Shown here in pieces: positions 36,634 through 42,312 of a stretch of 64,000 bases of DNA; within the stretch, counting starts at the first letter, position 1, and each line of letters opens with the position of its first letter. Source of the stretch: an uncultured delta proteobacterium (lineage in GTDB: Bacteria > Desulfobacterota > Binatia > Bin18); the NCBI GenBank assembly GCA_963733195.1, contig CAVTCR010000053.1, forward strand, positions 1-64,000, in the 5' to 3' direction. The notes beneath the pieces are model-generated. The model ran no database searches, was not told the DNA's origin, and saw nothing but the letters and a program-made list of their open reading frames with translations. The position numbers and the translations under genes are program-made.

Positions 36634-38283
36634 TTAACTCCGCATCCCTACGGAGCTAGCTTCGGTTGCCACGGACAAGCTTTGTTCGTGGCCCAGGCTG
36701 ACCCTAATTTTCCCTTCTGGCTCGCCCTCAGGCTCATTGCGCGGAACCCACACGCGAAAGATTGAGCCTTGTCCGACCTTGCTCTCGACTTCAATCGTAC
36801 CATGCACGAGTTCCAGCAAACGCCGGACGACGTAGAGACCTAGTCCCATACCGCCATACCGCCGAGTCATTGAGCTGTCGCCTTGCCGGAACATTTCAAA
36901 AATTTCTGGGAGCACGTCTGGCTCGATGCCAATCCCAGTATCGGAGATTGTCACTAGCACCCCTTCGTTTCGCAGATAGGCATCGACGGTAATACGTCCT
37001 TTCTCAGTGAATTTTGCTGCGTTACTGAGAAGATTTTTCAGTACGACTTTGAGTTTGGTTCGATCCGAATAAACCGGAGGTAACACAGTCGGTACCCGTC
37101 GGAGGTATCGCACGTTTGGCTTCTCGCGTAATTCTCGGATTTCTGTTTCTACCTCATCCATCAAATCTGAAAGATGGACTGGCCGGAGATCGACGGCCAC
37201 TTGCGCTGCTTCCATACGGCAAACATCAAGCATCGCAGTAATTAATTCTCGCAAACTCCTGGCGCTTTTTTCGATTCGTTGCAAAGGTTCTTCTTGCTCG
37301 GGCGCGAGCCGTCCAAAATTTTGCTGTAAGAGGAGTTCTGTATACCCCATAATGAGATTGATCGGCGTTCGCAGTTCATGCGACATGGTTGCCAAAAGAT
37401 CTGACTTGAGACGATTAGCGGTCTCCAAATCTTTTGCCCGTGCTCGTGCCGTATGCGCGAGTTGAATGGCAACACCAAGCAGCCCAGCGAGCGCTAACCC
37501 ACCAACTAAGACGACGCCAGGAAGGAGAGATCGCGCCCCAGCAAGTGGTTTACGCCGTGGCCAGATACGAACACGCCAATGCAAATCATGGAGGTCGATT
37601 GTCAATTCCTGGCCCCAAGACATTTCATACTTCCGACTTGAGTCAGTATGGCTATACACTTCACGCTCGTCTTCAAAAATGGCGACGGCGTACTCTGGGG
37701 CAAGATTCTCATGCAAGATGGAATTAAATAACTCTTGAAAAGCGAAGATCCCGGCAATGGTCCCGTCAAACTCTCCGTCGCGAAAGATTGGGACATAGGC
37801 GAGAAAGCCTTTTTTCCCAGGCGTGAGTTCTACGGCAGATGTGACAACTACCTCACGACGCGCCAGCACTGCCTCTACGACCTGTCGCTGGCGTTCACGA
37901 AATAACATATCGACTTCTTGTGCAACTTCTCCCCCAAGAGAAGGAACAACCCAACGGGTCAGCAACCACGGGTCGAGCCATGCCACAGCATGGTAGCCAG
38001 GGAAGTGCCCCATATTCAGTTCTGCTGCGGCTTCCCACTCCTTTTGCGTTGGTCGCCCTTCGTCTTCCCACTGCCGCGCCATGTTTGTGAGCGCTAGAAT
38101 ACGCGATTGGACACGGGCAATGATTTCATTTCGCATGTTTGCTGATTCTTTGCGAATCAGTCGTTCGACTTGCATTTGCTGTTCGGCAAGTAGTCCCCAC
38201 CATACCGCTATCGTTACTATGGCAACACTGGCTGTCACCGTGAATGGATGTTTGACGAATTGTGCAAGTTTGTTCGTCGCCAC
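36634..38283 (-). CDS. Sensor histidine kinase with CHASE-like periplasmic domain
   Basis: Two TMs, SHELRTP H-box, NLLSNAAKFT, DTGIGI, GMGLGL. Confidence 0.9.
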   Translation of the reverse strand: MATNKLAQFVKHPFTVTASVAIVTIAVWWGLLAEQQMQVERLIRKESANMRNEIIARVQSRILALTNMARQWEDEGRPTQKEWEAAAELNMGHFPGYHAVAWLDPWLLTRWVVPSLGGEVAQEVDMLFRERQRQVVEAVLARREVVVTSAVELTPGKKGFLAYVPIFRDGEFDGTIAGIFAFQELFNSILHENLAPEYAVAIFEDEREVYSHTDSSRKYEMSWGQELTIDLHDLHWRVRIWPRRKPLAGARSLLPGVVLVGGLALAGLLGVAIQLAHTARARAKDLETANRLKSDLLATMSHELRTPINLIMGYTELLLQQNFGRLAPEQEEPLQRIEKSARSLRELITAMLDVCRMEAAQVAVDLRPVHLSDLMDEVETEIRELREKPNVRYLRRVPTVLPPVYSDRTKLKVVLKNLLSNAAKFTEKGRITVDAYLRNEGVLVTISDTGIGIEPDVLPEIFEMFRQGDSSMTRRYGGMGLGLYVVRRLLELVHGTIEVESKVGQGSIFRVWVPRNEPEGEPEGKIRVSLGHEQSLSVATEASSVGMRS

Positions 38284-38718
38284 GGTTTACCCCCCCACTA
38301 CATTTTCGAGAGAGAGTTGGGCAGGACCAGAACTCGGGTCCTGAGTATCTTCGTCTCCTTTTTCCACCTTCTCCACCACCACCGTCGATCCGACCTGATT
38401 ACCTCTCTTGCAAGCACTCCAGATGACCTATAGGCAGAAAAATCAGAGGCGTTACCTCCTTTTCTGCTGTCATCAAAGTGTGGAGTTATTGCGTACTAGA
38501 GTAAGCGTCACTAGCTCAGTATTTACGAGAGCTGACGTTGCATACCGCCCCATAGAAAATCGTGCCGCCCCAAGAATCTACCTTCTTTCTGTACGATTGG
38601 CAAACTTTTCGGCAAGAAATTTTCTTATCGAATCCTGTCTCAGCACCATTGAGCGGTCACACAGTATTGCTTATGGTGATACAAACATAACATTGTGGCT
38701 CGCATGCAAGGAGTATAG

Positions 38719-39747
38719 ATGGAACAACATTGGTACGGAAACCGTCCTCAGCTTTGGCTGATGGTGTTGTCGTTTGTCCTTGTTACCGCACCGACGGTAC
38801 ATGCCGAAGGTGTAACCTCATCATCTTGGGCGGTGCTTAATGGTCGCAATATTACAGAAGCGGACCTATCTGCGGTCAACAATGGACAAACTGCGCGGAC
38901 GATGCATAACCAAGTGTATCAAGCCCGCAAACAGGCGCTTGATGCCTTTATTACGGACCAGTTACTGGTAGATGAAGCAAAGAAACGCGGCATATCGCGC
39001 GAGCAGCTTGTCCAACAAGAAGTTGATGCGAAAATCGCAGAGCCGACAGCGGCAGAAATTGAACAACTCTATAATGCGAACAAAGCACGTCTCGGTGGGA
39101 AGTCACTTGAGGAATCAAAGCCCACTATTATTTCTCATCTCAAAGGCCAGAAGCGTCAGACGCAAATGCAAGACTTTGTCCGTAGTCTACGGCGAGCTGC
39201 CGGTGTCAAGATGTTGTTAAAACCTCCGCCGCTCAATGTGACTCTTGATGGTGCGCCTACCCGTGGCCCGGCCACTGCTCCGGTGACGATTGTCGAGTTC
39301 TCAGATTTCCAATGACCGTACTGCGCTCGAGTTCAGTCTGAACTCGCCAAGGTTCGTGAGATCTATAAAGATAAAGTCAAAATTGTGTACAAAGATTATC
39401 CTCTAGAATTTCACAAGGATGCACGGAAAGCAGCGGAAGCTTCTCACTGTGCCGGAGAGCAGGGGAAATATTGGGAGTACCATGACGTACTGTTTGCGAA
39501 CACCAACGCTCTTGGTGTTGCCAATCTTAAGAAATATGCAACCGACCTAAAATTGGAAGTGAATCAGTTCACTACCTGCTTAGACAGTGGGAAGTATGCA
39601 GCAGCGATTACCAAGGATACTGCTGAGGGAGTCCAGGCTGGGGTAACTGGGACACCGGCGTTTTTCATCAATGGTCGTTTCCTTTCTGGAGCCCAACCGT
39701 TCGCGTCGTTCCAGGATGCAATTGAGGAAGTGCTGGAAACGCAGTGA
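38719..39747 (+). CDS. Secreted DsbA-family thioredoxin with SurA-N-like domain; probable selenoprotein (UGA at 39313-39315, UPYC)
   Basis: ORFs 38719-39315 and 39385-39747 share a frame; EFSDFQ-TGA-PYC places UGA at the N-terminal Cys of CxxC; GVTGTPAFFING cis-Pro loop. Confidence 0.88.
39328..39346 (+). promoter_or_regulatory. Bacterial SECIS-like hairpin
   Basis: CGAGTTCA-GTC-TGAACTCG perfect 8-bp stem starting 12 nt after the UGA; G in the apical loop. Confidence 0.75.
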
Positions 39748-39865
39748 AAGACTGAGGACTGAGTGCTCAGGACTGAGTTTAGAAAGTTTCAAGTTTAACG
39801 TTTAAGGTTCAAAGTTTACGGATTACGTTTTACGCATCACATTTTACGCTTTGCACTTTGCAACT
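39748..39865. repeat. Composite degenerate heptamer tandem array
   Basis: AGGACTG-type units, then AAGTTTA-type, then CGTTTTA/CGCATCA-type, then CACTTTG-type. Confidence 0.75.
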
Positions 39866-39931
39866 GATCGTCCTTCTCCGTCTGCTGTACCCCTCTTGGC
39901 GGGTCAGAAACGGCTATGGTAATTGTTGCGC

Positions 39932-41141
39932 ATGGCTGACAACACAACCAAAACTGAACGTCGAGTGACGCCGGGTGCACCACCACCCCGACCAACTACT
40001 ATCACCCCTCGAACTTGGCCGCTCTTGGCGATCCGCATCCTTGCCTTCGTGGGGATGTGTATTGCCGTGTATTTATCCGTTCTTCATTACCAGGCTGGCA
40101 CGCACGGAACCTTCGCTTCGCCTTTGTGCACCATCAGTTCGACAATTAACTGCAACGCCGTCTTAGGGAGTGTCTACGCGCGGCTCTTTGGCGTGCCGAT
40201 TGCCACTTGGGCAGCGCTCACCTATGCCGCCATATTGGGTGTGTCTTTCCTTGGTTCGATTAGTGTTCTCGTTTTTTTGTGTAGCTGGTCTTTCATTTTC
40301 TCTCTCTACATGGCCGGTCTCTCGCTGTTCACTCTTCAGGCGGGATGCCTCTTCTGCATGAGCTTGTATGCCGTTAATATCGGCCTCTTCATCAGTGCGC
40401 TTGCACTGACCAAGCAGGCGAGGAATTTTAGTTTTCGGCAGTTGCAGTATGGCCTTGCGGCATGTGTAGTCCTGGCTCTCGCGTTCGGTTGGGCACAAGC
40501 GAAACTTGCCGATACAATTACTCCCCCCGGAGGTCTCTTCAGACAAAGGCTTCACGGAAACCTATGACAAACTACGTCAGGTCACGCTCAACGTTGCAGA
40601 GAGAAACACCAAAGGTTCACCACAAGCGGCAGTAACCATCAGTGAATTTCTTGACTTTCGCTGTCCCGCATGTGCCCGCGCTCGTGAGACGCTCTCAAAA
40701 CTTGTCGAAAAGTATCCCAACGACGTGCGTGTGGTTTTTCATTCGTACCCACTCGACAACGAATGCAATTCCAGCCTGCCACAGCAAGTGCATGCTGCGT
40801 CCTGCCTGGCATCCTATGCCGCGGAGTGTGCCAGTGAACAAGGAAAGTTCTGGGAATTTGCTGATCGGTTGTTTGCCGATCAGCAACGAGTATTCTCCCG
40901 TCCAGACCTTGAAGTTCATGCGGGCGCCGTAGGGCTCGACATCAATAGCTTCAACACGTGTATGAACAGCGGGCAGACGAAAGGGATAGTTCGCCGGGAT
41001 GTTGAGGAAGGAATACGTATCGGTGTGAATGCAACGCCTACACTAGTGATCAACGGACGCGTCGCTGAAGGGCTACCCACTCCTGAACAGTTTGACACCA
41101 TCGTCGCAATTGAGAAGCAACGAGCGATGGCAAGCAAGTGA
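39932..41141 (+). CDS. VKOR-DsbA fusion protein (frameshift near 40520)
   Basis: VKOR LCTISSTINCNAV and CLFC; thioredoxin DFRCPAC, GVNATPTLVING. Confidence 0.88.
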
Positions 41142-41142
41142 T

Positions 41143-41190
41143 GAGGACTGAGGACTGAGTCGACGAGGACTAAGGACTGAGGACTCAGTC
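41143..41190 (+). repeat. AGGACTG heptamer array (left flank of the four-helix-bundle gene)
   Basis: gAGGACTG AGGACTG AGTCGACG AGGACTA AGGACTG AGGACTC. Confidence 0.8.
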
Positions 41191-41605
41191 AGAAGTTTCC
41201 TCGTTGTTCAGATTTCTCTGTTTCTCGACTGAGACGCGTAAGCCTCCAACAATACGAGCCAAGTTCTTCTGGCCAAGGACAAGAGCGTATCAAAAGTCGA
41301 TTGGTCAAGTATGGCCAACGTCGAGAGCGACGTAAAGCTGAGACCGAACTTCAGCGCAGGATGCTTTTGCCACAGAGAGCAAATTGGTGGAATTCTCCAC
41401 GTCCTCCTCGTTCAAATCCTTCGGCAATATTCGACATGATAGACACTGCAGCGCGTTGGATTTGCCCTGAGAGTCCAAAGTCTTTGGCGAAAGAGCCTTT
41501 CTGGGTGATCGCATAGATTTCTCGGGTGAGGATTCTTGCCTTCTGCCATGCTACCAAATCCTCAAACCGCTCGATACGTTTGACTCGATCAGCTTTATTC
41601 TCCAT
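41185..41605 (-). CDS. Four helix bundle protein (23S rRNA IVP/bAvd-like family), frameshifted
   Basis: [11 protein letters not shown]...[25 protein letters not shown]...[16 protein letters not shown]. Confidence 0.88.
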
Positions 41606-41637
41606 ACTCAGTCCTCATTACTCAGTCACTCAGTCCT
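41606..41637 (-). repeat. Inverted CAGTCCT/CTCAG heptamer array (right flank)
   Basis: ACTCAGTCCTCATTACTCAGTCACTCAGTCCT, reverse complement of the left array type. Confidence 0.8.
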
Positions 41638-41640
41638 TTC

Positions 41641-42312
41641 CTACGCGACGATGACATGCTCCTTCGTAATAATCACCGGAAGTTTCCCTGGTGCAATGAA
41701 GTTGGGCTCATCGGCTCGTGTGCGGTCATATTCTGGTGTGGTCGCTGAGACACGCATCGCTTGTGTATCGTCGAACCAGGTGATGGCGACACCATCGTAT
41801 GCTGGAGCTTTCCCACTCTTATATGCTGACAGTCGCGTGTGGCTTTGCACGTAACGGCGAACCACAGGAATTGAAGCACCAAGTGGGCCATGAATTTCTC
41901 GCCAGTGTTTTTGAAACGCTTCGATCACCATGCCAGGTTTGTGGGTGACGAACTCAATGTTTTTTACTCCATCAGACGGAATCGCCCCGTTTTTGATCAC
42001 GTGTTCCTCTGTAATGATCTGACCCATGGTTGAACGATCAATGAAGTTGAGTTCGTCAGTTTGGGTCGCAGCCAATTCTGCTGTATTGGTTAACGCTCGC
42101 AAGGCATTCGTGTCGTCGTACCAAAGCTCGGCAGTTCCATCATAAACAGGTTCTCCCTTCCGATAGCCGGACACCAAGGTGTGTGATTGTACGTAACGGC
42201 GAAGGCCTGGAAGTCTCTTGACGACCTCAGCATGCGTCGTCCGCCAATATTTCTGGAAATCTTCTACTGCCATCCCAGGTTTACGTTTGAAAAAAGCGAC
42301 AACTTTGACCAT
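41641..42312 (-). CDS. Tandem EthD-domain protein
   Basis: Two repeats of KPGM..E.FQK.WR..H...RRYVQSHT...YDG. Confidence 0.88.
   Translation of the reverse strand: MVKVVAFFKRKPGMAVEDFQKYWRTTHAEVVKRLPGLRRYVQSHTLVSGYRKGEPVYDGTAELWYDDTNALRALTNTAELAATQTDELNFIDRSTMGQIITEEHVIKNGAIPSDGVKNIEFVTHKPGMVIEAFQKHWREIHGPLGASIPVVRRYVQSHTRLSAYKSGKAPAYDGVAITWFDDTQAMRVSATTPEYDRTRADEPNFIAPGKLPVIITKEHVIVA

Follow-up and report, generated by a model that had tools for sequence, protein, structure and literature searches.

A predicted selenocysteine-containing DsbA-like oxidoreductase with a SurA-like module in a Candidatus Binatia soil genome

Introduction

DsbA-like proteins carrying a UxxC motif, with selenocysteine (Sec, U) in the active site, were predicted in 2005 in a survey of the Sargasso Sea, where the family was placed in COG2761 (FrnE-like) according to the part of that survey devoted to it (PMC1088965). 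DsbA-like UxxC selenoproteins also appear in the pertinent part of a study of bacterial genomes (PMC1794560). In its listing of families, a 2026 review names a "DsbA-like protein form 1, PF01323, UxxC" as well as a "DsbG-like" selenoprotein, which is NCBIfam NF041057, the Rcas_1661 family thioredoxin-like (seleno)lipoprotein (PMC13188914). We found no published link between Binatia and selenoproteins among the papers covered by our term search. The same search, with the same scope, returned no published link between VKOR and selenocysteine. Bacterial proteins in which VKOR is fused to a thioredoxin-like domain exist, as in the Synechococcus type. General selenium chemistry predicts that a Sec active site provides faster thiol-disulfide exchange but is less oxidising than a Cys pair.

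Here, we analysed a 64-kb stretch of DNA (called the window throughout, at its full length) from a Candidatus Binatia soil metagenome-assembled genome (MAG; 6.9 Mb in 87 contigs, 93% complete). Sequence comparison leads us to predict, with confidence close to certainty, that the gene at 38719–39747 is a selenocysteine gene of this genome.

Results

A single gene interrupted by one in-frame UGA

The open reading frames 38719–39315 (198 aa) and 39385–39747 (120 aa) share one frame. Reading the TGA as U yields a single product of 342 residues in which codon 199 is the sole internal UGA, with 0 indels. This TGA occupies the first Cys position of a CxxC motif (...VTIVEFSDFQ-U-PYCARVQSEL...), the active site being spelled U199-P-Y-C202. 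The first-pass annotation had described one frame with a lone TGA at the nucleophilic Cys and no indel, followed 12 nt 3′ of the TGA by a CGAGTTCA-GTC-TGAACTCG hairpin with an apical G; both were seen again, in 38719–39747 (+) and at 39328–39346, respectively. The locus is a real feature, which standard ORF calling mis-splits. Its parts are as follows.

38708..38713, + strand: Shine-Dalgarno sequence AAGGAG, 5 nt upstream of the ATG, read in the sequence
38719..39747, + strand: complete gene of the predicted selenoprotein, 342 codons with Sec199 counted, followed by the TGA stop
38719..38805, + strand: predicted signal peptide, residues 1–29, with a hydrophobic core and VHA|EG; orthologs are alike
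38818..39231, + strand: putative SurA-like helical chaperone module, residues 34–171, from sub-threshold Pfam matches, an AF2 model and a fold search
39253..39744, + strand: DsbA-like thioredoxin-fold catalytic domain, residues 179–342, from Pfam, Foldseek and PDB sequence matches
39313..39315, + strand: UGA predicted to be read as Sec199, the attacking residue of U-P-Y-C, from codon comparison across orthologs
39328..39346, + strand: SECIS-type hairpin with an 8-bp stem (7 bp conserved) and the apical loop GUC
39652..39657, + strand: Thr312-Pro313 of the cis-Pro loop (GTPAF), unchanged across 19 of 19 orthologs
39745..39747, + strand: terminal stop codon, again TGA; orthologs end 0–3 codons from here

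The TGA at 39745 is the real end of the gene and has no hairpin behind it. A tRNA scan of the 64-kb window returned zero tRNA genes, and a promoter and terminator scan of 38250–41700 gave a site count not above that of shuffled sequence.

The hairpin behind the UGA

According to the part of PMC1088965 that defines it, a bacterial SECIS element is a stem-loop situated immediately 3′ of the UGA whose small apical loop includes a G, and the hairpin at 39328–39346 has each of these properties (loop G, small loop, position right after the UGA). Its arms, CGAGTTCA (39328–39335) and TGAACTCG (39339–39346), pair perfectly over 8 bp and enclose the loop GTC (39336–39338), of which the first base is the G. 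The stem begins 12 nt and the loop 20 nt after the UGA; the UGA-to-loop distance usual in bacteria is 16–37 nt. Perfect 8-bp hairpins with a 3-nt loop occur twice on the + strand of the 64-kb window (13 times if loops of 3–7 nt are allowed), and one of these two sits directly behind the sole in-frame TGA of gene 38719–39747. Folding of a 76-nt stretch gave a minimum free energy of −17.7 (z = −1.81), equalled by 10 of 200 shuffles. As this energy is modest, the case rests on comparative evidence and not on folding energy. A scan of 39200–39500 against Rfam at E ≤ 10 returned no matching model.

Among the orthologs, the hairpin is retained in 15 of 15 TGA forms and the loop G is invariant in all of them. 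Pairing was computed on the 13 distinct Sec sequences, in 100% of which the 7-bp core is paired. One stem pair changes from U-A to G-C in three of these sequences and to G-U in one; the compensatory pair couples the synonymous change GTT to GTG with the non-synonymous change GAA to GCA, as an RNA constraint would produce. Shifting the pairing register lowered the share of paired cells in the Sec forms from 94% to 10–42%, and RNAalifold independently predicted the identical helix. Only 57.5% of the hairpin cells pair in the five Cys forms. Covariation is thin, with a double change in one of the eight pairs and five of the eight invariant, and because the hairpin coincides with the conserved residues ARVQSEL, constraint on this protein segment may account for some of the hairpin's conservation.

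Third-codon-position entropy in the Sec forms was 1.00 over the 10 codons before the UGA, 0.39 over the 11 that follow it and 0.97 beyond these, compared with 1.11, 1.19 and 1.04 for the same three stretches in the Cys forms. Between the window gene and its two congeners, synonymous differences were as low as 0.11 over the first 12 codons past the UGA vs 0.59–0.76 over the whole C-terminal part, and a third pair showed zero synonymous differences within these 12 codons. The corresponding pN/pS was 0.10–0.14 after the UGA and 0.21–0.24 before it, calculated from raw proportions because synonymous sites were saturated for Jukes-Cantor correction. Such low values behind the UGA indicate that the C-terminal part is translated and subject to strong purifying selection.

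Selenocysteine and cysteine alternate at one codon

A search of 40 related genomes provided the full-length orthologs. The resulting codon set comprises 20 loci from nine genera, the window's own included, whose proteins are 49–77% identical to that of the window. At the active site, 15 of the 20 have TGA and the other five TGC or TGT. Conservation of the TGA and the existence of Sec/Cys homolog pairs had been named beforehand as checks on the selenoprotein reading, and both turned out in its favour: the TGA is kept in 15 of 20 orthologous loci, and the 15 TGA and five TGC/TGT orthologs form such pairs at one codon. When the comparison was widened to 80 homologous loci, from Acidobacteriota, Nitrospirota and other groups, Cys stood at this position in 78 and TGA in two, both of which are Binatia contigs already within the 20-locus count.

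A protein search against 1.84 billion representatives returned 52,498 proteins at E ≤ 0.001. Nearly all of the best 150 of these 52,498 matches are proteins with 2–6 matched DsbA stretches. This search also yielded P0126 (346 aa at 51% identity), a Cys form of full length.

Selenocysteine machinery and further selenoprotein genes

The first-pass annotation had made its reading dependent on selA, selB, selC and selD, and all four were found in the genome above their cut-offs, selA being frame-broken in the assembly. selB (398 bits) adjoins selD (375 bits), which has an in-frame TGA of its own (...KAAG-U-AGK) and, 9 nt later, a hairpin of 8 bp with a GGC loop. The tRNA-Sec scored 70.7 bits and has the anticodon TCA. 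selA (361+140 bits) lies in two frames split at a GGG run, with a stop, and a further stretch of it aligns poorly with the congener protein. In the same assembly rpoB is spread over three frame pieces and rpoC over four matched ones, with gyrA whole, and selA is intact in five of five relatives checked. The breaks in selA, rpoB, rpoC and the VKOR-DsbA gene described below are best read as assembly indel errors; for selA this judgement rests on the breaks in rpoB and rpoC and on its intact state in the relatives. Across the class, selA scored above the cut-off in 39 of 41 genomes, including every species with a Cys-form DsbA. Of the public sequencing runs, the 24 listed each contain a small share of the selA locus, at most 0.15. 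Separately, a soil-metagenome contig of a relative (90–95% alike) offers a hint, having one base fewer at each of positions 1193 and 1198 of the selA locus (L012), inside the garbled stretch.

We scanned the genome, by a crude procedure, for TGA codons inside an open frame that are followed by a perfect 7-bp hairpin with a loop G. Seven of the 45 candidates fall in known selenoprotein families, selD and the DsbA-like gene included, and the other 38 mostly resemble noise. In-frame TGA codons with similar hairpins occur in three UGSC-family genes (132.7–147.3 bits vs an NCBIfam cut-off of 125), in a PrdB/GrdB-like gene with UPVC and in a YciW/AhpD-like gene with CPFU. The seven selenoprotein-family genes have spacers of 9–12 nt and the loops GGC, GUC, GUU, AGUUC, GGUCU, CGUGG and GUA. 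The hairpin of the DsbA-like gene fits this local SECIS-type pattern of the genome.

Domain architecture of the product

Residues 1–29 look like a signal peptidase I signal. Residues 1–40 contain zero Cys, and with no Cys in its signal peptide the protein is not a lipoprotein.

The following module, residues 34–171, consists of long helices in the AF2 model (pLDDT 83.3 for the whole protein, 89.6 for the N-domain model). In the window protein Pfam SurA_N_2 (26.0 bits vs 28.5) and SurA_N_3 (25.4 vs 27.2) both score below the gathering score; among the orthologs, SurA_N_3 was detected at E ≤ 0.01 in 15 of 19 and SurA_N_2 in 9 of 19. The best eight rows of a VIA search against 48,161 chains are all of the SurA/PrsA/PEB4/Cj1289/LIC12922 type, at Z scores of 8.0–5.7 that helical models may reach by chance. 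A Foldseek search with the N-domain model gave no match at E ≤ 0.001. The N-terminal module is without a PPIase domain.

The catalytic domain matches PF13462 (Thioredoxin_4) with 113.4 bits against a cut-off of 23.2 and PF01323 (DSBA) with 91.1 bits against a gathering score of 25.6, the latter together with UxxC being what defines a DsbA-like selenoprotein. Foldseek matched this domain to 3gyk (TMt 0.87, rmsd 2.0 over 166 columns), 4pwo, 7unn and 3eu4. With its helical insert in the thioredoxin fold, the domain conforms to the BdbD-type extracytoplasmic DsbA group. A second Cys pair, C244/C287, is invariant in 19 of 19 orthologs. The initial description of a secreted SurA-N/thioredoxin protein is thus supported by the PF13462 and PF01323 scores, by SurA_N_3 in most orthologs and by the SurA/PrsA/PEB4-type proteins that make up the best eight fold matches. 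The mature protein is predicted to be a SurA-like, PPIase-less chaperone module followed by a BdbD/MdbA-type DsbA domain.

The neighbouring VKOR-DsbA fusion

The selenoprotein gene and the next two open reading frames are flanked by a divergent CHASE histidine kinase gene and an EthD gene. Downstream of the selenoprotein gene, three features were located.

39923..40567, + strand: membrane portion of the downstream gene, of the vitamin K epoxide reductase (VKOR) family (PF07884, 66.8 bits), which has a CLFC motif and a pair of loop Cys
40506..41141, + strand: second DsbA-like domain (PF13462, 105.5 bits), C-terminal part of the VKOR fusion, with CPAC at 40662–40673
40523..40528, + strand: C6 homopolymer in the 62-nt frame overlap of VKOR and the second DsbA-like domain, likely the site of a 1-nt assembly error

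VKOR and the DsbA-like domain share one frame in 14 of 14 relatives and lie in different frames only in the window assembly. In the four relatives whose junction was read, no stop separates the two. In the window assembly, removal of a single base from the C6 run (40523–40528) would bring both back into one frame. The next gene is a VKOR-DsbA fusion, frameshifted in the window assembly, most likely at this run.

The order of the DsbA-like gene followed by VKOR is the same in the 14 relatives examined; a VKOR gene adjoins actinobacterial DsbA/MdbA, too. The CxxC motif of the fused DsbA-like domain is encoded with TGA in 8 of 15 genomes and with Cys in seven, the window included. Considering the first gene and the fusion together, these 15 genomes comprise seven with U/C, six with U/U, one with C/U and one in which the fusion alone was found, with U. 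In seven further genomes, the ortholog match table contains no TGA in either match, the fusion being listed there without a codon-level reading.

Evolution of the selenocysteine state

A maximum-likelihood tree built from 28 proteins sets the 21 Binatia rows apart from seven outgroups with a support of 84/94. The Sec/Cys state changes four times on the best tree, and at least two of these changes are forced by well-supported branches; two Cys forms are nested inside a Sec clade of one genus. Because all outgroups have Cys and all Sec forms have one common hairpin, the simplest history, on a provisional root, would be a single gain of Sec in the ancestor of this family and order, followed by several reversions with decay of the hairpin.

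Discussion

Alternative explanations

Taken at face value, the broken selA could mean that the Sec trait was freshly lost, in which case the DsbA-like gene would be newly dead and end at codon 198. The two frames of selA with their stop and the poorly aligning stretch speak for this, and the frameshift site itself (L012 1510–1512) is uncovered by pieces from four soil-metagenome contig sets, compared over L012 900–2500, the nearest piece ending at 1516. However, essential genes are split likewise (rpoB into three frame pieces, rpoC into four matched pieces), the shift in selA falls at a GGG run, selD, the three UGSC genes and others retain their UGA codons and hairpins, and the DsbA frame behind the UGA is without decay; we regard a fresh loss as very unlikely. 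Still less probable is an ordinary stop, with the locus being a pseudogene or a pair of genes for a 198-aa chaperone-like protein and a 120-aa fragment. This is exactly the split that standard ORF calling yields, and TGA does serve as a stop in this genome, at the end of gene 38719–39747 as well. But the 120-aa piece would have lost the strand bearing CxxC as well as half the DsbA fold, and pN/pS is 0.10–0.14 across the 143 codons that follow the TGA. This TGA lines up with the catalytic Cys in 5 of 20 close homologs and in 78 of 80 distant ones, and conservation of the hairpin is confined to the forms with TGA.

An open frame obtained by setting TGA equal to a residue cannot itself identify the residue inserted, which might be Trp or Gly under a changed genetic code, or Cys carried on tRNA-Sec; occasional insertion of Cys under selenium shortage is compatible with our data. 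Against a changed code, the orthologs stop with TAA, TAG or TGA at the same place, 143–146 codons past the active-site codon, so that TGA works as a regular stop in these genomes, which excludes a code change; in the window the TGA that terminates gene 38719–39747 lies 0–3 codons from these ortholog stops. Codon 199 aligns with Cys only, never with Trp or Gly, and the codon comes with a dedicated hairpin in a genome whose Sec system is complete. This leaves little more than a token probability for another residue. Finally, the assembly, made from error-prone long reads, clearly contains errors, and the TGA might be a miscalled TGC or TGT. The errors seen are frame-shifting indels, though, not substitutions, and the same TGA and hairpin recur in 14 other genomes that were assembled independently. 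The first-pass annotation had named such a misreading as a way to overturn its proposal; shared by these 14 other assemblies, the TGA excludes it, and its probability is practically negligible.

Proposed mechanism

Selenocysteine at codon 199 being the preferred reading, the whole of it, namely an exported periplasmic thiol-disulfide oxidoreductase with a UGA-encoded Sec in place of the attacking Cys of CxxC, is very probable. The hairpin would act as a bacterial SECIS element and recruit SelB-GTP-Sec-tRNA(Sec), and Sec would be inserted at UGA199 instead of a stop. The product would then be exported via the Sec translocon to the periplasm, where the SurA-like module may hold unfolded clients and U-P-Y-C may exchange with client thiols and disulfides through a selenenylsulfide. 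Most likely, the enzyme would in this way form disulfides in exported proteins that are unfolded, or reshuffle them, or both, and the quinone-linked VKOR fused to a second DsbA-like domain probably recycles the Sec-DsbA. Of these steps, four are inferences: that SelB binds the hairpin, that the protein is exported, which way the electrons run (oxidase vs isomerase) and that VKOR is the partner.

We lean slightly towards a function of the DsbA-like selenoprotein in a VKOR-driven oxidative folding pathway; gene order and family resemblance are the basis of both the VKOR partnership and the oxidase role. A more far-reaching proposal, that the locus is an undescribed Sec-using periplasmic disulfide relay in which a diffusible SurA-like chaperone fused to a Sec-DsbA works with a membrane VKOR and its tethered DsbA, Sec-bearing in about half of the lineage, is tentative and in our estimate rather doubtful. 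If true, selenocysteine would for the first time be placed within a VKOR machine that makes disulfides de novo. In that case, the occurrence of Sec in either or both partners would suggest that a selenolate somewhere along the relay accelerates the exchange with envelope clients that fold slowly in these soil bacteria.

Beyond rejoining a gene divided by standard ORF calling, these results would add Binatia to the lineages that use selenoproteins, with selA in 39 of 41 genomes of the class and at least seven candidate selenoprotein genes seen in this genome. The lineage also offers a natural Sec/Cys series, with both forms, the hairpin present or absent, sister species and two partner proteins, in which to ask what selenium contributes to oxidative folding.

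Comparison with known systems

As far as the published descriptions of the DsbA-like UxxC family extend in the sources cited above, its members and the window protein have PF01323, Sec at the first CxxC position, a hairpin directly behind the UGA whose small apical loop has a G, and widespread Cys homologs in common. The signal peptide, the SurA-like module and the VKOR neighbour of the window protein are absent from those parts of the descriptions. Structures of FrnE match only residues 259–338 (E 4.9e-8), whereas BdbD/TsdA/DsbA(Cd)-type structures match the whole domain (TsdA at 6e-19), which suggests, at the level of sequence, a DsbA subfamily other than the FrnE-like COG2761 of the Sargasso Sea family. 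NF041057 is the best NCBIfam match (E 3.1e-36 over residues 159–337) and likewise represents an exported UxxC protein of the thioredoxin fold. However, the window protein reaches 125.2 bits against the curated cut-off of 190 and has no lipobox Cys, and its SurA-like domain is extra compared with this family. Since it misses the NF041057 cut-off and FrnE matches weakly, we assign it to a predicted separate subfamily of the known DsbA-like UxxC selenoprotein kind.

Among structurally characterized proteins, the closest relatives, B. subtilis BdbD (3eu3/3eu4), C. diphtheriae DsbA (4pwo) and TsdA (7unn), and S. pomeroyi 3gyk, have the same fold at 24–32% identity and share the CxxC motif and the Thr-cisPro loop, with TMt of 0.81–0.87 for 3gyk and 3eu4. 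All of them have Cys, and none has a SurA-like module. The N-plus-C helical core of SurA, PrsA, PEB4, Cj1289 and LIC12922 aligns with the N-domain model (2pv3 at Z 8.0 over 107 residues, 3nrk at 7.4, 3rfw at 7.0, a range reachable by chance); in contrast to the SurA/PrsA chaperones, the window protein has no PPIase domain and a DsbA domain follows instead. The downstream VKOR resembles the Synechococcus-type fusion in carrying a C-terminal periplasmic thioredoxin-fold domain, but the fused domain is DsbA-like here and has UxxC in 8 of 15 genomes, with Cys in the window.

Predicted selenocysteine in the VKOR-DsbA fusion

The gene following the DsbA-like selenoprotein gene encodes VKOR fused to a second DsbA-like domain. 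The CxxC motif of this domain reads TGA (FVDFR-U-Pxx-C) in 8 of 15 genomes, at locus L024 (genome G002) and loci L133–L139 (G018, G014, G011, G005, G008, G001, G025), and a conserved GC-rich 5-bp hairpin with the loop CGUGN lies ~18 nt past the UGA. In G005, the ortholog of the DsbA-like selenoprotein carries Cys, and Sec is predicted in the VKOR fusion. Literature searches found no description of a Sec-containing VKOR fusion.

Frame breaks in the assembly

The fusion is split in the window assembly:

39923–41141: VKOR and second DsbA-like ORF, with a C6 run at 40523–40528

The two ORFs overlap by 62 nt in differing frames, and all relatives examined (14/14) possess a single uninterrupted fusion frame. 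Because removing one base from the C6 run would unite the frames, the break looks like an assembly indel. Other genes of the window's own genome (G000) are frame-broken as well, namely selA, rpoB (three frame pieces) and rpoC (four matched pieces), and gyrA is whole in the same assembly:

C11, 21654–22992: selA (L012)
C71, 133111–141235: rpoB/rpoC region

Indel errors seem to be frequent, and apparent pseudogenes of this genome are therefore not trustworthy.

Further candidate selenoprotein genes

Five additional G000 genes (L128–L132) combine an in-frame TGA with a SECIS-like hairpin:

C56, 178812–179342
C59, 234841–235407
C77, 19280–19906
C62, 33439–34149
C72, 6497–7111

They encode three UGSC-family (seleno)proteins, one PrdB/GrdB-like protein with UPVC and one YciW/AhpD-like protein with CPFU. 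Counting selD and the DsbA-like gene, there are at least seven candidates.

Surroundings and relatives of the DsbA-like selenoprotein

The selenoprotein gene is preceded, at a distance of 435 nt, by a divergent gene:

36634–38283, minus strand: CHASE-domain sensor histidine kinase

The spacer directly past the selenoprotein gene's stop (39750–39849) contains degenerate tandem repeats with units of 7 and 14 nt: GACTGAG (four copies), AAGTTTC-like (five) and TTTACGCATCACAT (2.5).

Among the matches listed in the protein library search, many proteins of 560–1196 residues (P0002–P0010 and others) carry three to six tandem DsbA-like domains, each ~40–48% identical to the catalytic domain of the window's DsbA-like selenoprotein.
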